From the NCBI GenBank assembly GCA_041592975.1, contig JBFHOZ010000001.1, positions 1 through 37,387 on the forward strand: 37,387 bases of DNA, in the 5' to 3' direction. Below, in pieces: positions 1 to 36,086 of the stretch; position 1 is the stretch's first letter, and each line of letters starts with the position of its first letter. The translations under genes were made by a program, and so were the position numbers. The notes under the pieces were generated by a model. That model had not been told where the DNA came from, did no database searches, and was given only the letters and a program-made list of their open reading frames with translations. Source of the stretch: Desulfuromonadales bacterium. GTDB taxonomy: Bacteria > Desulfobacterota > Desulfuromonadia > Desulfuromonadales > UBA2294.

Positions 1-532
1 CACAATGATGAACCGTCGTATCGACGAGGCCGGGATCCGTGACCTGCTCGACCGGATCCGCCAGTGTATGCCGGACGTCACCCTGCGAACCTCCTTCATC
101 GTCGGTTTCCCCGGAGAAACCGACGCCGAGTACGCCAGGCTGCTGGCCTTTGTCAACGAAGGGCATTTCGAACGGGTCGGGGTCTTCCGCTATTCGCGCG
201 AGGAGGGGACGGCGGCGGCCAGGCTGGATGACCAGATTCCGGTCAGGGTCAAACGGGCGCGTTATCACAAGCTGATGAAGGCCCAGGGGCGGGTCTCCTT
301 CCGCAAGAACCGGGAGCGGGTCGGCCGCATCGAGCCGGTGCTGGTCGAGGGGTACAGCGAGGAGACCGAGCTTCTGCTGCGCGGCCGTTCGATCAGCCAG
401 GCGCCGGATGTCGACGGTCAGGTCTATATCACCGACGGCCGGGCCCAGATCGGCGACATCGTGATGCTGCGGATCACCGATTCGTCGGACTACGACCTGA
501 TCGGCGAAATCGTCGAAGGGGAGGCGGTCTGA
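1..532 (+). CDS. rimO: Ribosomal protein S12 methylthiotransferase RimO, C-terminal part (5' end lies outside the window)
   Basis: The frame is open from the window edge to TGA 530-532. It shows a radical-SAM C-terminal region plus a TRAM domain ([41 protein letters not shown]), typical of RimO. Confidence 0.85.
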
Positions 533-535
533 CAC

Positions 536-1531
536 GTGACCCGAGCGACTGCGACATTGCTGCTGCTCGCCGCATTGCTTCTTGCCATTACCCTTCTCCC
601 TCCCCGGGAACCGGAAGGGCCGCTCATCCGCACCCGGCTGCTGATGGGGACCGTCGTTGAAATCCGCATCGAGGACACCGAGTCTGCCCGCTACGACGCG
701 GCGGTCACGGCCGCCTTTGCCGAGATGGCGGCGATCGAGCGGCGGATGAGCCCGCACCTGCCGCAGAGCGAGATCAGCCGGATCGCGGCGGCGACCGGGA
801 CGGTCGGACTCTCCGCCGACACCGCCGAGGTGCTGCAGCTGGCGCATGATGTCGCCGAGGCCAGCAACGGCGCCTTCGATGCGACGCTCGGCCAGCTGAT
901 CCGCCTGTGGGGGTTCGCCGAAGGCGAGCCGCGTCTGCCGACGGAAGAGGAGATCGCCGCTGCCCTGGCCGGTGACGGTGCAAGCAGGTTGATGATTGCC
1001 GATGGCAGGGTGGCCAAGGTCGTCGCTCCCCTGGCGATCGATCTCGGCGGCATTGCCAAGGGGTACGCCATCGACCGGGCGGTCTCTGTCCTCGCCGCCG
1101 CCGGCGTCAGGCACGCTTCGGTCAACGCCGGCGGCGACATGCGCCTGCTCGGCGACCGTTCGGGACGCCCCTGGCGGGTCGGGATCCGGCATCCGCGCAA
1201 GAGCGGCGACATTCTCGCAACCCTGCAACTGGCCGGCAAGGCGGTCGTCACGTCCGGTGACTACGAGCGCGTCTTCGAGCTGGACGGCGTCCGCTATCAT
1301 CACATCCTCGATCCCCGGACCGGCTATCCGGCCAGGGGATGCCAGGCGGTCACTGTCGTTGCCGACCGGGCGGCCCTGGCGGACGCGGTCGCGACTGCCG
1401 TATTCGTTCTCGGGCCCGGGAAGGGGCTGGCGCTGCTGGAGTCGATGCCGGATCTCGAGGGGGTGATTGTCGCCGCCGATGGTAACGTGAGCGTAACGCC
1501 CGGCCTGAGGGGGGTGCTTGAATGGCCGTGA
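536..1531 (+). CDS. apbE: FAD:protein FMN transferase (ApbE/Ftp family), membrane-anchored or secreted
   Basis: GTG start lies 4 nt after the rimO stop. There is a hydrophobic N-terminus (LLLLAALLLAITLL) and ApbE motifs GGIAKGYAIDRA, TSGDYER and HHILDPRTG. Confidence 0.9.
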   Translation: MTRATATLLLLAALLLAITLLPPREPEGPLIRTRLLMGTVVEIRIEDTESARYDAAVTAAFAEMAAIERRMSPHLPQSEISRIAAATGTVGLSADTAEVLQLAHDVAEASNGAFDATLGQLIRLWGFAEGEPRLPTEEEIAAALAGDGASRLMIADGRVAKVVAPLAIDLGGIAKGYAIDRAVSVLAAAGVRHASVNAGGDMRLLGDRSGRPWRVGIRHPRKSGDILATLQLAGKAVVTSGDYERVFELDGVRYHHILDPRTGYPARGCQAVTVVADRAALADAVATAVFVLGPGKGLALLESMPDLEGVIVAADGNVSVTPGLRGVLEWP

Positions 1532-2500: not shown

Positions 2501-2962
2501 ATGAATAACCGTTTCCTGAAATATTTGGCCGGCGGGATGTTCCTGCTGCTATCGGCCTGCGCTCCGCCGCCGGCCGAGGTCCCGGAATTGCCCGCGGAGA
2601 AGCTGCAGACCCTGCCGGGCGCGCTTGTCAGCGATGACGGCCTGGTTATCAGCTACCCGGGAAATGTCCTGTTTGCCAACGGTTCGGTGCTGCCGCTGCC
2701 GGGCGGGATGACGCTGCTCGATCCCCTGGTCGCGCTGCTGATCGAACAGCGCGACTACCGCGCAGAGGTGACCGTCCGGTCTTCCGGGCATGGAGTGGAG
2801 TACGACCGGCAGCTGGCGGAGAAGAGGGCAGAATTGCTCGAGAGGATATGCAGGAACCGGGGGCTGGAGGAAAGCCGGGTGCAATTTACGGCGGCAGCCG
2901 GAGGCGGCCCCCCCCTGGAAATCACCCTTCAGCCGTCCAGTTCCGGCGGCTCGAATCGGTAG
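2501..2962 (+). CDS. Lipoprotein with degenerate OmpA-like C-terminal domain
   Basis: Lipobox LLLSAC. The C-terminal part resembles the OmpA_C fold (VLFANGS..L, YDRQLAEKRAELLERIC..GL). GGAG lies 4 nt before the ATG. Confidence 0.7.
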   Translation: MNNRFLKYLAGGMFLLLSACAPPPAEVPELPAEKLQTLPGALVSDDGLVISYPGNVLFANGSVLPLPGGMTLLDPLVALLIEQRDYRAEVTVRSSGHGVEYDRQLAEKRAELLERICRNRGLEESRVQFTAAAGGGPPLEITLQPSSSGGSNR

Positions 2963-3786
2963 ACGCGCCGGCAGTATTCGCAGGTGACGTCGACGGTCTC
3001 TTCCCCTTCGGTCATTCCGGCGAGCTCCTTCCGGCCGAGATTTCGCAGCATCCGGGCAACCTGTTCCCGGCTGCAGTTGCAGCGGAAGGAAAGGGGAATC
3101 GATTCGGCCTTGTTCATGTCGCCGTCGACGAAGAGCTTGCCGAGGATGTCGCGAATCGGCACCTGCTCCCGAAGCATCTCCGACAGTGGCGGGAGCTTGA
3201 GAATGCGGTTTTCGATCTCTCCGATCGCCTCATCGGGACACCCCGGCAGAGCCTGGACGATGAATCCGCCGGCGGCTTGGACGCCGGCATCGGGTCCGAG
3301 GGAAACTCCGAGGGAGACCGAGGACGGGACCTGCTCCGAAACGGTCAGGTAGTAGGCGATATCGTCGCCGATCTCGCTGGTCTGCAGCTGGACCATGCCC
3401 CGGTAAGGCTCCTTGAGGCCGAGGTCCTTGATGACATGCAGGAAGCCGGCCCTGCCGACGGCGCCGGCGACGTCGAACCGGTCGTTGCGCGGCGGCAAAT
3501 CTGCCAGCGGGTTCTTGACCGAGCAGCGGACATGCCCGTCGGCATCGGTTTCGGCATGAAGCTTCTGCAGGGGGCCGTTTGCCTCGATCGCCAGGACGAG
3601 GCGCTGTCGCCCCTTGAGCAGGCCGCCGAGCAGGGCCGTGCCGGTTGCCACCCGGGCGAGGGCAACGGTTGCCGTCGGATCGGTCCCCTGCATGACCCGG
3701 GCGGTTTCACACAGTTCGGTCGTCACCGCGACGATGGCCCGGAAATGACCTGATCTGGTAACAAAGCGGATAAGTTGGTCGCCCAT
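2929..3786 (-). CDS. hslO: Redox-regulated chaperone Hsp33
   Basis: Full-length Hsp33 pattern with the C-terminal zinc centre CNCS...CEYC (FRCNCSREQV ... VTCEYCRRVY). SD GAGGAG precedes the ATG. Confidence 0.92.
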   Translation of the reverse strand: MGDQLIRFVTRSGHFRAIVAVTTELCETARVMQGTDPTATVALARVATGTALLGGLLKGRQRLVLAIEANGPLQKLHAETDADGHVRCSVKNPLADLPPRNDRFDVAGAVGRAGFLHVIKDLGLKEPYRGMVQLQTSEIGDDIAYYLTVSEQVPSSVSLGVSLGPDAGVQAAGGFIVQALPGCPDEAIGEIENRILKLPPLSEMLREQVPIRDILGKLFVDGDMNKAESIPLSFRCNCSREQVARMLRNLGRKELAGMTEGEETVDVTCEYCRRVYRFEPPELDG

Positions 3787-6632: not shown

Positions 6633-6923
6633 CTAACGGCTGGAGACAGCCGGGTCGCGAATGAGGGCCTTGGCGATTTCGGCGATCTGCCCGGCGGAGA
6701 GGTGCTTGAGGCCGGCCATTGAGCCAAGGGTGTTGATGGCCGAAGCGATCCGTGCCGGCCGGCGGTCGGGAATGCGGGTCGTCTCCAGCTTGCCGTGACA
6801 CCGGGCGCAGTTCTGCCGGTAAAGGGCCGCCCCGTCCGGTTCACTGTCCAGTTCCGGAACGTCCGCCAAGCCGGGGCTCACGACAACAAAAAGCACTGTT
6901 ATGGCAACGAGTAGCGTCTTCAT
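6633..6923 (-). CDS. Secreted monoheme c-type cytochrome
   Basis: Signal peptide MKTLLVAITVLFVVVSPGLA and a single CXXCH (CARCH). The gene is convergent with aroC. Confidence 0.75.
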   Translation of the reverse strand: MKTLLVAITVLFVVVSPGLADVPELDSEPDGAALYRQNCARCHGKLETTRIPDRRPARIASAINTLGSMAGLKHLSAGQIAEIAKALIRDPAVSSR

Positions 6924-7755: not shown

Positions 7756-7784
7756 TTGACCGGCGGCCGGGTTCGGTTTAAAGT
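7756..7784 (+). promoter_or_regulatory. Candidate sigma-70 promoter (TTGACC-17-TAAAGT) of the DsbA-like gene
   Basis: TTGACC lies at 7756-7761, followed by a 17-nt spacer and TAAAGT at 7779-7784. It is followed immediately by the 14-bp palindrome GTTGGACATCCAAC (7786-7799). Confidence 0.4.
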
Positions 7785-7812
7785 TGTTGGACATCCAACC
7801 GGGAGATTCCAG

Positions 7813-8655
7813 ATGGTTCGTATGCTGCCGATATTCCTGCTGATCCTCTCCTTTTCCGCTGCCGCTCTCGCCGAGGTCGAATGGCAGGTCGTGCAGAGCC
7901 TCCAGCTCCCGTCATCGCCGGTCGATGTGACGACCAGCGGCGACGGCCAGAGAGTCTTCGTGCTGCTCGAGAATGGGGAGGTCCGGGTCTACGATGCCGG
8001 CGGGACCCTGCAGGAGTCCGTCAGGCTCGGGCTCGGCGCCGACCGGATCGCCGTGACGCCCGACGGCGAACGGCTGCTGCTGAGCGACGCCAAGGGGCGC
8101 CAGGTGAGGATGGTGGCGCTCGACTTCATCAAGCCGATCGATATCTCCGGCTCCCCCTTCAAGGGGCCGGATGACGCAAAGGTGGTGGTCGCTGTCTACA
8201 GCGACTTCCAGTGACCGTACTGCGCGCGGCTGGTGCCGCTACTCGAGCAGGTGCTCGAGCAGTATCCGAAGGATGTCAAGCTGGTCTTCAAGCAGTTCCC
8301 CCTGGGCAACCACAAGTTCGCCGGGCCGGCCGCCCTGGCGAGCATGGCGGCCAACGATCAGGGGAAGTTCTGGGAATTTCATGACCTGCTGTTCGCCAAC
8401 TACAGCAGCCTGAGCGACGCGAAAATCAGGGAACTCGCCACCGAAGCCGGTCTGGATATGGTCCGCTACGATCAGGATATGAAGGAGAAGGGGAGTGACT
8501 ACCTGAGCCTCGTGCGCCGCGATTTCCACGAAGGGCAGCAAATCGGCGTGCGTGGTACGCCGTCGATCTTCGTCAACGGCAAGCTCCTCCGGCAGAGGAG
8601 CCTGCCCGGGTTCAGGGCGATGATCGAACAGGAGATTGCAAAGAAAGGGAAGTGA
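7813..8655 (+). CDS. Secreted DsbA/BdbD-like thiol:disulfide oxidoreductase, probable selenoprotein (UGA 8212-8214 read as Sec in a U-P-Y-C redox motif)
   Basis: Track ORFs 7756..8214 and 8233..8655 are in the same frame, with only the single TGA between them. The ATG at 7813 is preceded by GGGAGA and encodes a signal peptide (MVRMLPIFLLILSFSAAALA). Reading through gives VVVAVYSDFQ-[TGA]-PYCARLVPLLEQVL...KFWEFHDLLF...GVRGTPSIFVNGK, a thioredoxin-fold DsbA family with the TGA at the first Cys position of CPxC. Confidence 0.75.
8226..8263 (+). promoter_or_regulatory. Candidate bacterial SECIS hairpin(s) downstream of UGA 8212-8214
   Basis: Hairpin A is GCGGC-UGGU-GCCGC (8226-8239) and starts 11 nt after the UGA. 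Hairpin B (8238-8263) is GCUA-CUCGAG-CAGGUG-CUCGAG-CAGU, with 6 Watson-Crick bp, 3 more pairs after one mismatch, and a G/U-containing apical loop about 34 nt from the UGA. Confidence 0.45.
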
Positions 8656-8742
8656 CCGGCCACCCGTCAGGGCATGAAGGTGCAAAGCATTGGTTGAAAA
8701 CGAAAACAAGAAGAGCACGAAGTCGTGCTTGATTGGAAAGCG

Positions 8743-8769
8743 AAAGCCCCCGAAGAACTCGGGGGCTTT
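8743..8769 (+). terminator. Rho-independent terminator, likely bidirectional, between the DsbA-like gene and the convergent VWA gene
   Basis: aaagcccccga-agaac-tcgggggcttt is followed by ttatt. The stem is flanked by A-rich sequence upstream and T-rich sequence downstream. Confidence 0.7.
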
Positions 8770-8839
8770 TTATTGATCACTGCCTTGGTTTGTGCTTGAT
8801 TTTCCTCATGCCCTGGTGCCGGGGCCATTGACCTGCAGG

Positions 8840-9484
8840 TTATTCCAGAATCCTTTCCAGGCGCTCGAGGTCGTTGATGACCCGCCATTTTCCCTGACCG
8901 GTCTCGACCTTCTTCTTCCACTCCTCGAGCCGGCCCATGTACTTGCGCGGGTCCATGATGTCGCCGCGCAGCTTGGTGACGTTGAGGGCGACGACCTCGA
9001 TCCCCTGCAGCTGCAGCGGAATGTCGCGGACGTACCCCTTGGCGAGCTCCTCCTCCATGTCGGAGAAGACCAGGATCACCTTGCGTCCGGCGCCGGTCTC
9101 GTAGAGATACTCGGCCGCCTGCAGGATGCCGCCGGTGATGTCGGTGTAGGGGGCGCCCTTGACGGTCTTGACAAACTTGTCGATGTTGTCCTTGAAATCC
9201 CGCTTTTGCTGGTTGGAGACCGACGGCCGGCCGTCGAAGGTCATCTTCTGAACGATGTCCTTCTCGCTGAAGCTGCCGGTGTCGATCCGGGCGACAGCCA
9301 GCGAATCGCCCGGCTGCAGGGTGCCGAGCAGGTAGTTGATGATCGCCGCGGCCTTGTCGAGCTCCCGGGTATAGGTCCCGGAGGTGTCGAGCAGCATGTA
9401 GACCGCCTTGGAGTGGCTGGTGGTGTCGGAACAGCCGCCGGCCATGAGGACCAGACCGGCCAGCAGCAGGGATATTTTCTTCAT
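8840..9484 (-). CDS. VWA (von Willebrand factor A) domain lipoprotein
   Basis: Lipobox LMAGGC and a MIDAS-like DTSGT (AVYMLLDTSGTY), with later TDITGG and VFSDMEE. The start codon overlaps the stop of the upstream gene (ATGA, 9481-9484). Confidence 0.75.
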   Translation of the reverse strand: MKKISLLLAGLVLMAGGCSDTTSHSKAVYMLLDTSGTYTRELDKAAAIINYLLGTLQPGDSLAVARIDTGSFSEKDIVQKMTFDGRPSVSNQQKRDFKDNIDKFVKTVKGAPYTDITGGILQAAEYLYETGAGRKVILVFSDMEEELAKGYVRDIPLQLQGIEVVALNVTKLRGDIMDPRKYMGRLEEWKKKVETGQGKWRVINDLERLERILE

Positions 9485-10932
9485 GGGTGCACCTCCTCGC
9501 GATGTGGTGAATCGGGCTTGTCGTCGTGTGCGGATGCGGCTTGCCTTGCCGGTTTCGGTTCCCGGTGCAGCTTCTCCTCGATCCAGAGGGCCGGGAAGAT
9601 CAGCAGGTCGTACAGGGCGATGATCGCCTTGCCGAGATGGCTGATGATGTTGCCGGTCAGGCGCAGCACGAAGGCACCGGATCGCAGCGCCCAGGCGAGG
9701 GCGATGCCGATGACGGTCCGTGAAGAATGAATGAACGACTCGAGCGGAATGGCGACGAAGGTGAGGGCGAACGGCAGGACGAAGCCCATGACCATCTGCC
9801 CGGCGGTCGGGATAACGCTTTCGACCTGGGTCCTGACGGCCTCGGCTCCGGCCAGGGTCTGCCGGAGCGCCTCCATGTCGGCGGCGATCCGGTCGCGCAT
9901 GAAGGCGAGCGCCGACTCGACGCCGGCGAGGGTGAAGAGGATGATGAAGGAGATCCAGATCATCCGCTTGCGCATCCGGTCGTCGAGCTGGCCGATCACC
10001 GGGAAGAGGTGGGTGATGCGCAGCGACTCCATCAGGAACAGCCCCATCGAGATCTCCACCAGAATGATGACCAGGGCGGCAACATTGGAGGTCTTGAAGT
10101 TGCCGATGTAGCTGCCGCCGCCGACCATCTCCGACATCGGCAGGGCGATCAGGTTGAAGTTGATGATGGCGCCGCCGATGGCGATCAGCATGACCAGGCC
10201 GGAAATGAAGAACTGGGTCAGCGACGAGGACGAAAGGCGTCTTTCCGCCTGGTCCTCGCCGGCGCGGATCTGTTCGTATTCGTCCATCTTCGACGTGATC
10301 AGCTCAGAGCGCTCGAACAGCCCGGTGATGGTCTTGCCGACCTGCTCGAGGGTTTCGCTGAGCTTGCGCCAGACCGGCATCATCTTGTTGAGGGTCGCGT
10401 GGCGCTCCTGGCTCGCCTTGCGGAATTCGTCCATTGCCGACTTGTGGTGCTTGTCGAGGGTCCTGTTGATCTCACCGAGAATCTCGGCGACACCGCCGTC
10501 GGTGTTCGGCACCTGGGCGACCGCTTCGATGGCGGCGATCCAGGCGGGCGGCGACGGCGGCACCTCGGTGCTCTTGCGATAGTCCTCGTCGATGCGGGTG
10601 ATCAGGTCGGACATGCTGCGGTGGAAGGCGGGATAGGTCTGCAGGTCCCGCTTGACCACGGCGTCGACCCGGTGGAACTCCCGCTCCAGCTCCTTTTCGA
10701 CCGCGAGCGCCCCGGAGGCGAGCAGAACCTCGCGGTTGCGCTGCTTGAGGCGCTGCTCGGCGAGAATCAGCGACTTCGAGGCCATCCGCAGCGCCTGGGC
10801 GGCGACGCGGGTAAAGGCCTTGACCATGCGATGCATCTGCTGGCGCGCGAGGTAGAGCAGCACGAGCAGGATGATGACCAAAGCCGGCCAGGCGATGAGC
10901 GGATGCGTTTCGAGAACTGATAACAGAGACAT
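9481..10932 (-). CDS. Uncharacterised multipass membrane protein with a long helical (coiled-coil-like) cytoplasmic domain
   Basis: The ATG at 10932 follows AAGGAGG, while the track start at 10968 lacks an SD. A perfect TATAAT on the minus strand lies at 10981-10986. The protein has one N-terminal TM, about 230 aa of charged helical region, then 4-6 TM helices. I recognise no family. Confidence 0.75.
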   Translation of the reverse strand: MSLLSVLETHPLIAWPALVIILLVLLYLARQQMHRMVKAFTRVAAQALRMASKSLILAEQRLKQRNREVLLASGALAVEKELEREFHRVDAVVKRDLQTYPAFHRSMSDLITRIDEDYRKSTEVPPSPPAWIAAIEAVAQVPNTDGGVAEILGEINRTLDKHHKSAMDEFRKASQERHATLNKMMPVWRKLSETLEQVGKTITGLFERSELITSKMDEYEQIRAGEDQAERRLSSSSLTQFFISGLVMLIAIGGAIINFNLIALPMSEMVGGGSYIGNFKTSNVAALVIILVEISMGLFLMESLRITHLFPVIGQLDDRMRKRMIWISFIILFTLAGVESALAFMRDRIAADMEALRQTLAGAEAVRTQVESVIPTAGQMVMGFVLPFALTFVAIPLESFIHSSRTVIGIALAWALRSGAFVLRLTGNIISHLGKAIIALYDLLIFPALWIEEKLHREPKPARQAASAHDDKPDSPHREEVHP

Positions 10933-11148
10933 GCGAACCTCCTTGAAAAGACGCGATTCAGGATGCATCTCCTGATTTGGATTATATCTGCAAGGGGAGT
11001 TCCAGAAAATCCGGGGCAGTGAATTAAACTGCCTTCTCCCCTAATTCTCGCAGTTTTCAGGCGGTCTGCAAGGGGGCGGGTGTAATTGGTCGATTTTATT
11101 ATGGTGGAAACGGGTGAAGAGGCGGAGGGGGGGTAACATTTTTCGGCG

Positions 11149-20800: not shown

Positions 20801-21198
20801 GGCCTGCCCCCTTTCCGCCGCAGGAAGTTGTCCGTACATTATAGCAGGCCGCGGCATGAATATTAGCCCCCTCTCATATCTTGCGCCGATGACGTTTTTT
20901 CATCCGGGCCCGGCAAGAACCCTGTGAAAACCATAAGCCGCCACCGGCCCCCCCCCTTCCGCCGTGCGAAGGGCGCTGGTCAGGGCAAGGAGGGAGGTCT
21001 CATTCTGCCGTCTGCGTTGATGCGAATCGATTCCTGTCCTGTTGCTGAATGCAGACGCAAATTTCAGCATGGGCATCCTTGCCGACTTCATTTATCATGG
21101 GGTGCGTGTTTGCTGGTCTCTCAGGGGAGGCAGGGCAGCCTGTTCTGGTGCCGGAGGGGGCCGATGGCGGCCCTTCGCGATTATCCGCCGGGAGTGGA

Positions 21199-21504
21199 AT
21201 GAAGACTTTTCGCATCATCGCCATCGTCGCCACCCAGGCCCCGCTCATCTACTTCGAGCTCGGCAGCCGCGACCTGCTCGGCGGATTCAACCAGACCAGC
21301 GAGGGGTTCTTTCTGATGGTCGGCCTGTTTGTTGCCGTGCCGCTGCTCAACCTCGCCTGGCTGGTTCTGGAAGCGGCGCGATCCTTCAGGATGGCCCGCG
21401 AGAAGGGGTGCAGCCGGACGATCTTGCTCCCCCTGGCACCGCTGATTTTCGTCGCCGAAGCCATCGCCATCGACCTCTACCTGCTCGGTCATGTCCGGAT
21501 GTAG
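21199..21504 (+). CDS. Small hypothetical membrane protein (about 3 TM)
   Basis: The ATG at 21199 follows GGAG. It has hydrophobic helices (FRIIAIVATQAPLIYF, FFLMVGLFVAVPLLNLAWLVL, ILLPLAPLIFVAEAIAIDLYLL). I recognise no family. Confidence 0.55.
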   Translation: MKTFRIIAIVATQAPLIYFELGSRDLLGGFNQTSEGFFLMVGLFVAVPLLNLAWLVLEAARSFRMAREKGCSRTILLPLAPLIFVAEAIAIDLYLLGHVRM

Positions 21505-31991: not shown

Positions 31992-32888
31992 TCACCCTCG
32001 CCCGAACCAGGGAGACAGCCGCAGCAGCCGCACCGCCAGGGTCTCGACCGAAATCCGTGTCTCGAAATCAAGCTTGCGCAGCCACCTGTGCGGCAGGGCA
32101 TCCAGGCCGTAGAACGCACCGGCGATCATGCCGCCGATGGCGCCGGTGGTGTCGGCGTCCCCCCCCTGGTTGACGATGCCGGTCAGGCACTCCTCGAAGG
32201 ATGCGGTCGAAAAGAGGAAGTGGAACACCGTCCGCAGGGTCTCGACCACGTAGCCGCTCGCCTGGCCATCGTAATGATTGAAGCGGAAGTTGGGGAACTC
32301 GGCGACCAGCGCGCGGGTCAGGCGATGCAGTTCGAAGCGGTCGGCACCGAGCATTGCGGCCTGGACCATGCGGCCGGTGCAGATACAGGCGGCGTCGGAG
32401 AGCGGATGGTGGTGGGTCAAATGTGCCTGTTCCAGGGCGCAGTGCTGCAGCAGCTCGTCGTCGCCGAGGGTGAAGAGGGCGACCGGCGCCATCCGCATCG
32501 CCGCACCGTTGCCGGCATCCCACTCGTTCGGCGCCACCGCCAGTTCGCCGGTACGCATGTGCTGGCGGATCCCCTTGCGCACCGTTGAGCCGATATCCAC
32601 CGGTTTGCTCCGCATCCAGAGGACGAAGTTGCGGGCGATGTCGGCGAGGTTCCATTCGCCGCAGGTTGACAGGCTGCGGGCGATGGCAAGGGACATCTCG
32701 GTGTCATCGGTCACCTGCCCCGGCTTGAGGTTGAGCCAGCCGCCGCCGACGATTTTCCGGTGGACCTTGAATTTCGCCCGGATCTCTCCCGGCGTCATGA
32801 ACTCGGTCGTCGCACCGAGTGCGTCGCCGAGCGCCAGGCCCAGGAAGGCGGCCCTGCCGCGTGATGTGACCTCGTCGCGATCATCCAC
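31992..32888 (-). CDS. draG: ADP-ribosyl-[dinitrogen reductase] glycohydrolase-like protein (ADP-ribosylglycohydrolase family, DraG)
   Basis: ARH-family N-terminus GLALGDALGATTEF and TDDTEM, and C-terminal GGDADTTGAIGGMIAGAFYG. The gene overlaps the draT stop by 8 nt. Confidence 0.85.
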   Translation of the reverse strand: MDDRDEVTSRGRAAFLGLALGDALGATTEFMTPGEIRAKFKVHRKIVGGGWLNLKPGQVTDDTEMSLAIARSLSTCGEWNLADIARNFVLWMRSKPVDIGSTVRKGIRQHMRTGELAVAPNEWDAGNGAAMRMAPVALFTLGDDELLQHCALEQAHLTHHHPLSDAACICTGRMVQAAMLGADRFELHRLTRALVAEFPNFRFNHYDGQASGYVVETLRTVFHFLFSTASFEECLTGIVNQGGDADTTGAIGGMIAGAFYGLDALPHRWLRKLDFETRISVETLAVRLLRLSPWFGRG

Positions 32889-33675
32889 CGGTCAACACCT
32901 TCACTTCGTACTCGCCGCCGATCACCATCACCTCCTCCTCCCCCTTGAGCAGGGCATTGGGGAGCAGGTCGGAGCGGAAGACCATCTTGACGACCGGCAC
33001 CTCGGCCTGCAGAACCCGGGTTCCGAATTCCCAGGCCCGCTCGAAATCGGTGGTGAAGGAGACCAGGTTGTTGAGCCGCACCAGGTGGTGGTTCCGGCCG
33101 AGATCCCTGAGAATACGCTGCTCGTTGAAATCGTTGATGCCGCGGTAGAGGGTGAGGGACGCGGTGACCGGCAGGGCGAGGCCCATCTCGTACTGGGCAT
33201 ATTCGTAGAGCAGGTCGAACTGCTGGTAGATGGCGCTGGACCGGGCCTTTCCCTGCATCCGGTCCTTGAGGTAGCGGTGGTAGGCTTCGGAGTGGATGTC
33301 CTCGATCGGCCGGTGGTGAAAGGTCGGCGCCAGGCCGAAGCGGCTCTCGACCCACCCCTTGAGCACCGCCCCCTCGCGCGAGTTCGACTCGAACATCCAG
33401 CCGCGCAAAAAACGGAGGTAGCTGTTCTTGAGGCTCTTGCTGCCGCTTCTCGACGCCTCCTGCTCCCACTGGTGCAGCTGGAAGGTGACGTCCATGTAGT
33501 CGTGGAACTGCAGGCCGCGCATCTCGCGGGTTCCGAGCTTCGCCAGCCGGTCGAACAGCAGTCGGTTCGCCTGGCGCACCCCCTGGATCTCGAGCGGCTT
33601 CGGGTTCCGGTTGAAATAGTGCGAGGCGATCACCCAGGGGGGCAGGTTGCAGAGATTGAGCGACGCCGACTGCAC
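32881..33675 (-). CDS. draT: NAD+--dinitrogen-reductase ADP-D-ribosyltransferase-like protein (DraT)
   Basis: GTG start lies 4 nt after the upstream stop. From memory, blocks EGAVLKGWVESRFGLAPTFH, LYRGINDF, VRLNNLVSFT and KGEEEVMVIGGEYEVK correspond to the conserved blocks of Rhodospirillum/Azospirillum DraT. Confidence 0.85.
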   Translation of the reverse strand: MQSASLNLCNLPPWVIASHYFNRNPKPLEIQGVRQANRLLFDRLAKLGTREMRGLQFHDYMDVTFQLHQWEQEASRSGSKSLKNSYLRFLRGWMFESNSREGAVLKGWVESRFGLAPTFHHRPIEDIHSEAYHRYLKDRMQGKARSSAIYQQFDLLYEYAQYEMGLALPVTASLTLYRGINDFNEQRILRDLGRNHHLVRLNNLVSFTTDFERAWEFGTRVLQAEVPVVKMVFRSDLLPNALLKGEEEVMVIGGEYEVKVLTGG

Positions 33676-33679
33676 CGGA

Positions 33680-34243
33680 TCAGCTCTCCATCAGGATAAT
33701 CGCTTCGGCGACTTCCTTCATCGACTTGCGCTTGTCCATGGCGATCTTCTGCATTTTCCGGTACGCCTCCGGCTCGCTCATCCCCTTCTCCATCAGCAGA
33801 CCCTTCGCCTTGTCGACCTGCTTGCGGGTTTCGAGCGCCTCCTTGAGCTTGGCGTTCTCCTCCTGCAGGTTGCTGATTTCGATGAAGCGGTGGATCGCCA
33901 GCTCGACCGCCGCCCTGAGCTGGTCGGCGTTGAACGGCTTGAGGATGTAGTTGCTGACGCCGGCGTCGCGGGCCCGCTCGATCGTCTCGGTTTCGGTCGC
34001 CCCGGTCAGCAGGACGATTGGCGCCGCGACCTTTTTGCCTATTTTTTCGGCAGCGGTGATGCCGTCCATGACAGGCATCGAGACGTCGAAGACCATCAGC
34101 AACGGGTTTTCGGTCGGTGCCAGCTCGACCGCCTGGGCGCCGTTTTCCGCCTCGACGATCCGGTCAAAGCCGTAATCGGCGAGGGTTTCCGCCACCTGGC
34201 GGCGGATCAGCGGTTCGTCGTCGGCAATCAATGCAGTCTTCAT
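33680..34243 (-). CDS. Response regulator with ANTAR RNA-binding output domain (AmiR/NasT/GnfR-like)
   Basis: The ATG at 34243 follows GAGGAGGAG. The REC has LIADDE, LMVFDVSMP and ILKPF. A coiled-coil linker is followed by ANTAR (RKQVDKAKGLLMEKGMSEPEAYRKMQKIAMDKRKSMKEVAEAII). Confidence 0.9.
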   Translation of the reverse strand: MKTALIADDEPLIRRQVAETLADYGFDRIVEAENGAQAVELAPTENPLLMVFDVSMPVMDGITAAEKIGKKVAAPIVLLTGATETETIERARDAGVSNYILKPFNADQLRAAVELAIHRFIEISNLQEENAKLKEALETRKQVDKAKGLLMEKGMSEPEAYRKMQKIAMDKRKSMKEVAEAIILMES

Positions 34244-34278
34244 TTTATTACTCCTCCTCTGGGGTGAAAACCATATAG

Positions 34279-34294
34279 TGCATATACGGTGCCA
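34279..34294 (-). promoter_or_regulatory. Sigma-54 (-24/-12) promoter upstream of the ANTAR-RR/draT/draG operon
   Basis: The minus strand reads TGGCAC-cgtat-ATGCA against the consensus TGGCAC-N5-TTGCA. GG and GC have the correct 10-nt spacing, about 35-50 nt upstream of ATG 34243. Confidence 0.6.
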
Positions 34295-34358
34295 TATGGT
34301 CTGCCGAAGGCGAGGACGCCGGCCCACGATGGGAAAAGTGGGGGAGCGCTCCGGCGAT

Positions 34359-36086
34359 TCACTCCGGTGCCGAGGCCAGTCTGTGCAGCGTACAGCCGGA
34401 TGGCGCCGCAAAAAGCGCCTGCAGCAGATCGCGGTCGCGACCGTAGATATCCTCGCGGAAGTTGACCCGGTCGTTGTCATCGACCCAGGCGGTCCAGTAG
34501 AGGACATGGACCGGCAGCGGCCGCTCGAGATAGACCCGCTGCGGTGTTCCGGCCGCCATCGCTTCGGCGATATCCGTGTCGCCCCACCCTTTCTCCTCGA
34601 GGAGGTGGCGGGCCAGCACCTCCGGCCGCTTCAGCCGGATGCACCCGGAACTGAGCGGGCGGTTGCGCTGCCAGAAGTGGTGCCGCTCGTTGGTGTCGTG
34701 CAGGTAGACGGCGTAACGGTTCGGCAGCATGAACTTGACCCGTCCGAGGGCGTTCCACGGCCCCGGCTTCTGGCGCAGCAGGCCGGGGAAGTCGTCGCTG
34801 CCGACCGTCTCCCAGTCGATTTCCGCCGGGTCGAGCAGCGTCTCGCGGTCCCAGGCGACCAGCTCGTAGTGGTTCTCATCGATGTAGGCGGGGTTGCGGC
34901 GGATCAGGGGGAGCTTGTCCTCCACGAGAATGGTCTTCGGAACGTACCAGTAGGGGGCGAACTCGATGTATTCCAGCCAGGCGGAAAACACCGGCGTCTT
35001 GCGGTAATGGTTGCCGACCACCGCCGGCATGGCGAGAACCGTCTCGCCGTTCTCGACCAGCGCGACCGAGAAATCGGCGATGTTGACCAGCAGGTAGTTC
35101 CGGCCGAGGGTCTTCGGCAGCCAGCGCCAGCGCTCCAGGTTGATCTCGATCTGCCGGACTCTCTCGGTGACCGGGACGTTCAGGGCCGCCCGGGTCCCCT
35201 CGCCGAGCACGCCGTCCGCAGCAAGGCCGTGGCGGCGCTGGAAACGCCTGAGCGCCGCGGCATCGCCGTCGGCCATGTTTTCCGGATTCCCCGCGGGAAC
35301 CTGCTCGAGGTCGCCCGAGAGCAGCAGACGGGTCCGCAACAGCGGCAGCCGCGCGTCGCTCATCCCGGGATGTACCGGTTCCCCTGCGGGAATCGTTGGC
35401 CAGCCCCCCATCGCCGCGACCTCGCGGTAGCGCTCGAGGGCTTGTTTCAGGGCGCGATAATGCTCATGATCGGGCTGCAAGTCGCGCAGCACCTTGTCGA
35501 GCTGATCGTTCTCGAAGGCGAAGCGGATGACCCGGGAGACGGCGACCTGCTCCTTGCGCAGGTCCCAGCCCTCCTGGATGGCGTCGGACGGCACCCTCCC
35601 CTCGATCATGTGGAGAAAGTAGTGGAACAGGGCGTCGGTCAGCAGGATGTCGTACCAGCCGCTCCAGCGCAGGAGCGGCAGTCCGTAGACATGCTCCTCG
35701 ATGGTAAAATGCGACAACAGTTCGCGGAAGAAGGGGAGGTGGTAGTCGGCGCCGCACAGGCCGCTGTCCGGAGTTTCGCCGAAATGGCGCAGCGCCGTCC
35801 TGATCTGTGCGCGTCCCCGGTGGTCGTCCGTTCGCCAGAGCGGCGCATAGCCCCGCTCGCGGTAGAAGCGGAGCAGCTCCCCGGCCATGAAAACCGGCTC
35901 GCCGGCGACCTTCAGGCCCGGTTCGGCCGCGATCTGGCCGATGATCTCCTTCAGGGCGCCATCCGCCCCGTCATCGGCGACCAGCGGTGTCGCCGGCACT
36001 GACAGGAAGAGCACAAGCAGCAGTGCGCTTCGGGTGAGAATCCCAAGATTGACCATACGCCGAGCCCTCTTTCTATCATACCGCAC
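34359..36086 (-). CDS. L,D-transpeptidase (YcbB/LdtD-like) with PG_binding_1 and YkuD domains
   Basis: Peptidoglycan-binding repeat AALRRFQRRHGLAADGVLG and a YkuD catalytic block YLHDTNERHHFWQRNRPLSSGCIRL. The alternative start ATG 36056 begins directly at the signal peptide. Confidence 0.88.
   Translation of the reverse strand: MRYDRKRARRMVNLGILTRSALLLVLFLSVPATPLVADDGADGALKEIIGQIAAEPGLKVAGEPVFMAGELLRFYRERGYAPLWRTDDHRGRAQIRTALRHFGETPDSGLCGADYHLPFFRELLSHFTIEEHVYGLPLLRWSGWYDILLTDALFHYFLHMIEGRVPSDAIQEGWDLRKEQVAVSRVIRFAFENDQLDKVLRDLQPDHEHYRALKQALERYREVAAMGGWPTIPAGEPVHPGMSDARLPLLRTRLLLSGDLEQVPAGNPENMADGDAAALRRFQRRHGLAADGVLGEGTRAALNVPVTERVRQIEINLERWRWLPKTLGRNYLLVNIADFSVALVENGETVLAMPAVVGNHYRKTPVFSAWLEYIEFAPYWYVPKTILVEDKLPLIRRNPAYIDENHYELVAWDRETLLDPAEIDWETVGSDDFPGLLRQKPGPWNALGRVKFMLPNRYAVYLHDTNERHHFWQRNRPLSSGCIRLKRPEVLARHLLEEKGWGDTDIAEAMAAGTPQRVYLERPLPVHVLYWTAWVDDNDRVNFREDIYGRDRDLLQALFAAPSGCTLHRLASAPE

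Follow-up and report, generated by a model that had tools for sequence, protein, structure and literature searches.

A DsbA-like gene from a Desulfuromonadales bacterium with an in-frame UGA, very probably read as selenocysteine, at its catalytic cysteine position

We analysed a window of 37,387 nucleotides (the whole stretch of DNA under study, positions 1 to 37,387 of the forward strand and thus the entire contig JBFHOZ010000001.1 in assembly GCA_041592975.1) from a Desulfuromonadales bacterium, in which a dsbA-like gene, referred to below as dsbA(U), is interrupted by a TGA triplet. Judged from the sequence and its homologues, positions 7813-8655 very probably form one gene for a secreted thiol-disulfide oxidoreductase, in which the UGA at 8212-8214 would be decoded as selenocysteine (Sec). 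The initial annotation of the window had proposed a probable selenoprotein with Sec in place of the N-terminal Cys of a CxxC motif, and this proposal is supported by the alignment of homologues, by the recurrence of the same TGA in other genomes and by RNA hairpins located directly downstream of it.

An in-frame TGA at the catalytic cysteine position

The two open reading frames (ORFs) listed for this region, 7756..8214 and 8233..8655, lie in one frame (offset 477 = 159 x 3) and the TGA at 8212-8214 is their sole interruption; read-through yields ...KVVVAVYSDFQ-*-PYCARLVPLLEQVLEQYP..., so that both the shared frame and the read-through sequence given in the initial annotation were confirmed by translation. 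Read from the ATG at 7813, the single coding sequence on the plus strand (7813..8655) comprises 280 codons and a stop, with the TGA at 8212..8214 as codon 134 and the redox motif U-P-Y-C (C-P-Y-C in the Cys-containing homologues) at 8212..8223. Third-position GC content is 0.82 and 0.83 in the two halves, which therefore carry the same coding signature, and since other genes of the contig commonly end in TGA, there is no sign of a codon reassignment.

Protein searches were performed with the read-through protein, in which Cys was put at the position of the TGA. In a database of 5.8 billion protein clusters more than 2,000 homologues were found; of the 120 that were listed, the majority have a length of about 280 amino acids, cover 90-100% of the query and share 44-55% identity with it. 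Those aligned over their full length are single proteins of about 280 amino acids, which contain both halves and span 92-100% of the query, and all 25 have Cys at the position of the TGA (S-D-F-Q-C-P-Y-C), followed by nearly invariant P135 and Y136 and an invariant C137. As the homologues are single polypeptides with Cys at this very column, the two ORFs represent one gene, whose stop falls on the N-terminal redox Cys, in agreement with the earlier proposals that the ORFs belong together and that the TGA occupies the first Cys of a CPxC motif. A full-length Sec form is not present among the best database matches, though TGA-type genes of 58-70% identity do exist. An additional informative domain was considered for homologues of about 450 amino acids and was ruled out, their extension being due to tandem DsbA domains.

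Scanning one genome per GTDB species for the pattern GAYTTYSARTGACCNTAYTGYGC, that is D-F-[QE]-TGA-P-Y-C-A with a core of 16 fixed and six two-fold degenerate positions, returned at least 119 stretches, compared with about 4 expected by chance (1.2e12 positions, equal base frequencies assumed). All but one of the 119 stretches listed (118/119) belong to DsbA-like genes with open frames on either side of the TGA, the exception, L119, being a chance match; they originate mainly from metagenome-assembled genomes (MAGs) of Desulfobacterota, Anaerolineae/Chloroflexota and Nitrospirota. Closest among the matches listed is L002, from a Desulfuromonas sp. MAG, with the same TGA and 70% identity in the C-terminal half. 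The 140-amino-acid downstream product was also found on a contig (L120) of a second assembly, GCA_041593795.1, which is 99.89% identical to positions 7997-10708 of the window (two mismatches and one indel in 2.7 kb) and has kept the TGA. With the triplet present in a second, non-identical assembly and in 118 other genomes, it is very unlikely that the TGA stems from a sequencing error or is a nonsense mutation private to this genome. Public gene calls split the L120 locus into genes 3..218 and 237..659, and it appears that the subfamily is routinely mis-annotated as two genes.

The start codon of the read-through gene is likely the ATG at 7813, which is preceded at a distance of 7 nt by a Shine-Dalgarno-like GGGAG (7801..7805, +). 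It opens a predicted Sec-type signal peptide (Sec denoting here the export pathway), MVRMLPIFLLILSFSAAALA|EVEW, encoded at 7813..7872 (+) and supported by the sequence as well as by the N-termini of the homologues, which show an equivalent hydrophobic segment with an A-x-A-x-V-E consensus; cleavage would take place after A-L-A. Residues 1-20 have a predicted local distance difference test (pLDDT) score below 60 in the AlphaFold2 model, and no lipobox Cys, nor any other Cys, occurs in the N-terminal 30 residues of the read-through protein. The upstream half had earlier been described as a signal peptide plus a beta-repeat region, and profile search and structural model bear this out.

RNA hairpins downstream of the UGA

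Two adjacent hairpins, identified by folding and covariation, follow the UGA on the plus strand: hairpin 1 (GCGGC-UGGU-GCCGC, 8226..8239), located 11 nt past the UGA, with -9.0 kcal/mol and z -3.7 in the window sequence, and hairpin 2 (CUCGAGC-AGGU-GCUCGAG, 8242..8259), with -10.7 kcal/mol and z -3.65; according to the folding, an optional outer helix connects them. In an ungapped alignment of 49 TGA-type sequences of the window's subfamily both helices are 92.2% paired, 8 of the 12 pairs are compensatory (59 cells), and the covariation score of 0.330 was reached in none of 500 shuffles, while controls slid along the same alignment gave at most 46% pairing and scores of at most 0.078. Compensation is partly synonymous, as in an Arg codon (CGG/AGG) paired with a Pro codon (CCG/CCU), and partly involves coupled amino acid changes: LEQVLE is encoded as CUCGAG...CUCGAG, LQQVLE as CUCCAG...CUGGAG and LDQVIE as CUCGAU...AUCGAG, replacements of E by Q, D or K within LEQVLE being offset by matching changes in the paired codon.

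As the peptide ARLxPxLxQVL is conserved in Cys-type genes too, 53 such genes of the same subfamily, taken from metagenomes by the matching TGY pattern and with at least 40% identity to the C-terminal half of the window protein, served as a control. Here the same positions are 52.6% paired with a score of 0.122, within the range of the slid controls (0.072-0.168). Hairpin 1 is 85% paired in the TGA-type set, with 4 of 5 pairs compensatory, but 55% paired in the Cys-type set, and hairpin 2 is 97% paired, with 4 of 7 pairs compensatory, as opposed to 50%. The mean number of pairs in hairpin 2 is 6.4 of 7 in TGA-type and 3.5 of 7 in Cys-type genes (Mann-Whitney p = 5e-16), and a subset matched for the peptide gave 6.8 against 3.7. 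Compared with synonymous-codon shuffles preserving the peptide, z amounts to -2.39 in TGA-type and -0.50 in Cys-type genes (p = 7e-13); the window itself has 5/5 pairs in hairpin 1 and 7/7 in hairpin 2, with z = -2.59. Pairing that is found in TGA-type genes and not in Cys-type genes with a similar peptide indicates a structure which tracks the TGA, as expected for a selenocysteine insertion sequence (SECIS), and the stretch 8212-8275, which had been suggested for a SECIS search, thus does harbour a SECIS-like structure covarying in the TGA-type genes only.

Elements of the fdhF type have one hairpin immediately 3' of the UGA, whose small apical loop contains G/U. Like the SECIS of E. coli fdhF, the window hairpins lie within 50 nt of the UGA, and hairpin 1, at 11 nt past it, has the position of the minimal E. 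coli element, while the loop of hairpin 2 contains the conserved G followed by G/U and U; unlike fdhF, the window has two covarying hairpins, no sequence similarity to that element and no Rfam match. The loop of hairpin 1 varies across the subfamily (UGGU, UUGU, UCAC, UUUC and others), and in hairpin 2 the closing pair is always C-G and the loop reads A-G-(G/U)-U. We favour hairpin 2 as the putative SelB contact; hairpin 1 may serve as a spacer or as a stacking helix. Other TGA-type subfamilies carry different hairpins at similar distances from the UGA. Members of the Anaerolineae type, in contrast to the two hairpins of the window's subfamily, have a single one at +20..+39 (UUGCGCC-CGUGAU-GGCGCAA, loop CGUGNU), which is 97.6% paired in 24 sequences and displays GC/UA switches. 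Bacterial SECIS elements are diverse (PMC9312934), and the differing hairpins of the subfamilies fit with this.

Selenocysteine decoding and its alternatives

Decoding of the UGA at 8212-8214 as Sec is very probable, and for this particular organism it is inferred rather than proven. Several observations weigh against it. Folding of positions +1..+51 of the window alone is unexceptional in comparison with dinucleotide shuffles (z -0.97), so the structural support is comparative and not thermodynamic. The loops of bacterial SECIS elements are spaced 16-37 nt from the UGA; the loop of hairpin 2 begins 34 nt past it, near the upper end of this range, and hairpin 1 combines canonical spacing with a variable loop, so that the functional element is not pinned to one hairpin. 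No SECIS was reported by Rfam, neither for the whole window at the gathering threshold nor for 8190-8300 at E <= 10, the sole match being a spurious miRNA; Rfam is uninformative for bacterial SECIS elements and such an absence is to be expected, although it leaves the element outside any curated model. No selA, selB or selD was detected by Pfam among the 36 ORFs of the window and the tRNA scan revealed no tRNA-Sec on the 37-kb contig, which contains no tRNA genes of any kind. The Sec-decoding capacity of the organism is something we infer from the intact SECIS-like structure, from the genes of TGA type that its closest relatives carry and from the literature, where Desulfuromonas acetoxidans is listed with 6 selenoproteins and D. 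acetoxidans and Geobacter species with 6-8 each (PMC1794560, table 3); likewise, incorporation of selenium in every member of the subfamily is a prediction made from sequence.

The same evidence bears on three other explanations. A Cys-type dsbA-like gene might have become a truncated, non-functional pseudogene, or might appear as such by sequencing error, as one third-position change turns TGY into TGA, the contig is of metagenomic type and public gene calls give two ORFs. Yet the TGA recurs, with intact frames on both sides, in the second assembly and in 118 other species-level genomes, the closest relatives are TGA-type as well, the coding signature is kept in both halves with no further stop or frameshift, and the Sec-specific hairpins are fully intact, which makes this explanation very improbable. 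Slightly more room, though still little, may be given to a relic, that is, a gene descended from a true selenoprotein gene in an organism that has lost the Sec machinery, in which UGA would terminate translation and leave the N-terminal beta domain only. The machinery was indeed not seen on the 37-kb contig, and bacteria are documented to lose selenoproteins and the Sec trait frequently (PMC1794560); loss of the trait, however, should bring decay 3' of the TGA or reversion to Cys, while both the downstream half and the two hairpins are perfectly preserved, the Desulfuromonas relative shares the arrangement at 70% identity, and this related genus includes a documented Sec user.

Least probable of all, and hardly credible in our view, is the production of two proteins, the first being a secreted beta-domain protein ended by the UGA and the second a thioredoxin domain re-initiated at GTG 8233. 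An ORF with this start does exist and public annotation calls the 140-amino-acid product, but GTG 8233, the earliest possible start 3' of the TGA, lies within the conserved CPYCARLVP motif and is not preceded by a Shine-Dalgarno sequence, as had been noted earlier in stating that the downstream half has no sensible start of its own. Its product would be devoid of the first redox residue, strand beta1 and the signal peptide, and hence of a complete fold and of export; moreover, all aligned homologues consist of one polypeptide, and the presumed start would fall within the conserved RNA hairpins.

If UGA is read as Sec, a ribosome arriving at the codon would meet an mRNA folded just 3' of it into a SECIS of two adjacent hairpins (8226-8239 and 8242-8259), to which SelB-GTP-Sec-tRNA(Sec) would bind in order to deliver Sec, hairpin 2 with its invariant loop being the more likely contact. 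The full-length protein would then be exported to the periplasm by means of its signal peptide, where Sec134 may act as the exposed nucleophile, forming a selenenylsulfide with Cys137 and exchanging with thiols and disulfides of substrates.

Protein fold, family placement and genomic surroundings

The read-through protein matches Pfam Thioredoxin_4 (PF13462) with 82.6 bits (cutoff 23.2) over profile positions 5-164 of 165, and more weakly Pfam DSBA (PF01323), with 76 bits, above threshold and split into two stretches. An AlphaFold2 model based on a 26-sequence alignment (mean pLDDT 91.2, predicted template modelling score 0.78) places a catalytic domain with a helical insertion at residues 114-272 (8152..8628, +). 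Its template modelling scores, normalised by target length, are 0.81 with BdbD (3eu3), 0.82 with the Silicibacter oxidoreductase 3gyk, 0.80 with ScsC (4gxz) and 0.78 with Wolbachia alpha-DsbA2 (6eez); ScsC 6nen and 4xvw, C. diphtheriae DsbA/TsdA and BcfH are further structural matches, and the sequence-profile search agrees with them. In the model, residue 134 directly precedes helix 136-150, the canonical position of the nucleophile. G248, T249 and P250 are invariant in the 25 homologues, and Thr249-Pro250 (8557..8562, +) presumably forms the cis-proline loop of thioredoxin-fold oxidoreductases. By its modelled fold, its motif at the CxxC position and its Thr-Pro loop, the protein belongs to the DsbA/BdbD/ScsC-type thioredoxin-fold enzymes. 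The dipeptide of the CPYC motif is that of E. coli DsbG.

A beta-rich domain of seven strands precedes the catalytic one (residues ~35-105; 7915..8127, +; strands E36-41 through E97-102, pLDDT ~90). In the profile search residues 29-106 match 1l0q (2e-15) and residues 38-105 match 2ymu as well as designed WRAP-T propellers derived from two blades, and the domain corresponds to about two YVTN/WD40-like beta-propeller blades. It was found in 49 of 49 Sec-type subfamily loci and is common to Cys-type and Sec-type members. PmScsC, alpha-DsbA2 and BcfH are oligomeric isomerases assembled via N-terminal modules. By analogy with these extensions, including that of trimeric ScsC, the two-blade fragment may drive oligomerisation, which would favour an isomerase- or reductase-like role for the read-through protein.

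DsbA-like (COG2761/PF01323) and DsbG-like (COG1651) selenoproteins were described from the Sargasso Sea in 2005 (PMC1088965), and a paper of 2006 names DsbA-like ones in Anaeromyxobacter dehalogenans, Desulfovibrio desulfuricans and Desulfotomaculum reducens (PMC1794560). Members of the DsbA superfamily with a UxxC motif are thus established as selenoproteins by bioinformatic prediction, and the DsbA-like selenoproteins of Deltaproteobacteria which the initial annotation had mentioned are indeed on record, as UxxC proteins (PMC1794560, PMC1088965). Current catalogues list a 'DsbG-like protein' (pfam13462/NF041057, UxxC) and a 'DsbA-like form 1' (PF01323, UxxC) (PMC9312934, PMC13188914). By the naming used in this field, 'DsbA-like' in the sense of COG2761 fits the window protein less well than the Thioredoxin_4 'DsbG-like' family. 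With the latter (PF13462/COG1651, the 'DsbG-like protein' of the Zhang/Gladyshev catalogues) the window protein shares the best Pfam match, a UxxC motif with N-terminal Sec, a predicted extracytoplasmic location and a bacterial SECIS-like hairpin after the UGA, and it has both features of the broad DsbG-like definition, namely PF13462 above the gathering score and UxxC (PMC9312934). Its best NCBIfam match is NF041057 (Rcas_1661 family thioredoxin-like (seleno)lipoprotein), whose equivalog cutoff of 190 bits was reached neither by the window protein (71.9) nor by its close relatives L002 (67.8) and L021 (82.5). In contrast to NF041057, the signal peptide of the window protein is predicted to be cleavable and has no lipobox Cys, so that it would not be a lipoprotein, and the N-terminal two-blade propeller-like domain sets it apart from the DsbG-like family and NF041057 alike.

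'DsbA-like form 1' (PF01323/COG2761), which we compared through the PF01323 score and FrnE-type structures, resembles the window protein in the 76 bits obtained with PF01323, in UxxC and in its occurrence in Deltaproteobacteria, but the relationship to the COG2761/FrnE type is remote, as 5cnw and 5cp1, two FrnE structures, are matched at no better than E = 1.7e-5 and along only a portion of the domain. The Cys-type BdbD, ScsC, alpha-DsbA2, BcfH and actinobacterial DsbA/TsdA structures (3eu3, 4gxz, 4xvw, 6eez, 7jve, 4pwo, 7unn) have the same fold, the CPxC position and the Thr-Pro loop, and several add an N-terminal oligomerisation module; they differ in having Cys instead of Sec and helical N-terminal modules, and their identity to the window protein is 19-28%. 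The window protein is best filed under a known family of predicted selenoproteins, as a further member from a separate subfamily. A more far-reaching interpretation would regard this Desulfobacterota/Nitrospirota subfamily (signal peptide, two blades and a U-P-Y-C DsbA domain) as distinct, not individually catalogued and consistently mis-annotated, and as combining a bipartite SECIS (a variable-loop spacer hairpin at +11 beside the hairpin with the A-G-(G/U)-U loop) with blades that assemble into a multi-subunit propeller, in a Sec-dependent periplasmic isomerase or reductase of anaerobes; as a whole we hold it to be rather doubtful.

General knowledge of selenoproteins is unchanged by this gene, although specialists might take an interest in its SECIS of two hairpins and in the propeller blades at its N-terminus. 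Its annotation should be corrected to one coding sequence with a Sec exception at 8212-8214, and at least 48 other species-level genomes of the subfamily, together with about 70 further genes of sister subfamilies, call for this change as well; since no curated NCBIfam model reaches the window's subfamily, pipelines will keep splitting the gene. With the predicted protein, the redox enzymes in the envelope of a Desulfuromonadales-like anaerobe would include a secreted one that contains Sec, and the 49 Sec-type and 53 Cys-type genes, closely matched, constitute a large natural set that shows clearly how the coding sequence of a conserved peptide accommodates a SECIS.

Other Sec-type loci differ in their architecture. 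Four of the Anaerolineae type (L007, L063, L095, L096) contain two tandem DsbA-like domains in one frame with a TGA in each (..SDFQ-U-PYC.. and ..SDFQ-U-PAC..), the second TGA being followed by a hairpin of its own (AUCGCC-CGUGA-GGUGAU), and are probable double-Sec proteins as far as can be read from their sequences; in L063, on the minus strand, the first TGA is at reverse-complement offset 3766 and the second 552 nt downstream. L004, L017, L026 and about 20 similar loci encode a Sec-type Thioredoxin_4 protein with a lipoprotein-like leader and about 320 codons after the TGA, including, at the C-terminus, a fused peptidyl-prolyl isomerase domain of the cyclophilin type, for which the PpiA/PpiB NCBIfam models gave partial matches, and have a different, single-hairpin SECIS with the loop CGUGNU. 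In L010, and by peptide similarity in L032 and L085, a DnaJ (J) domain and a hydrophobic segment precede the Sec-type Thioredoxin_4 domain, an unusual fusion.

In the window, dsbA(U) lies between genes for a VTT/DedA-family membrane protein and a VWA-like lipoprotein. A sigma-70-like promoter match (TTGACC, 17 nt, TAAAGT; 7756..7784, +) is a weak fit to the consensus, and with one site against 0.3 expected in shuffles the scan is by itself no evidence of function. At 8742..8775 (+), 87 nt past the stop codon, direct folding gave a terminator-like hairpin of 12 bp with a U-run (-21.5 kcal/mol, z -3.9), which was not reported by the consensus terminator scan; it probably ends the transcript and separates dsbA(U) from the convergent VWA-like gene at 8840..9484 (-). 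No DsbB, VKOR, DsbD or CcdA partner was found by Pfam among the 36 window ORFs. In a tblastn search of the window neighbours against 48 Sec-type loci the VTT gene was matched in L002 only, and de novo clustering yielded no recurrent flanking ORFs save the gene's own halves and an antisense shadow ORF; as no neighbour is conserved across the 48 loci, there is no operon context from which a redox partner could be inferred. Genes for the redox chaperone Hsp33 (2929..3786, -) and a small monohaem c-type cytochrome (6633..6923, -) are situated no more than 5 kb upstream of dsbA(U), and by the same tblastn search they are not conserved beside it in other genomes.

A second pair of ORFs in one frame separated by TGA, 2..532 and 533..1531 (+), was considered as a selenoprotein and rejected, as it consists of a complete TRAM-domain protein followed by an ApbE flavin-transferase gene, which starts at GTG 536 with its own N-terminal leader. 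A predicted membrane protein of 495 amino acids (9481..10968, -) and a 151-amino-acid ORF with a good coding signature (21049..21504, +) have no Pfam match; the gene of the former overlaps the VWA-like lipoprotein gene by 4 nt at the stop of the latter, which suggests an operon. Further downstream, genes for a DraG-like ADP-ribosylglycohydrolase and for DraT, the dinitrogenase reductase ADP-ribosyltransferase, are adjacent (31992..32888 and 32881..33675, -) and lie next to an ANTAR response regulator gene at 33680..34507, an arrangement which suggests that nitrogenase is controlled post-translationally in this organism.

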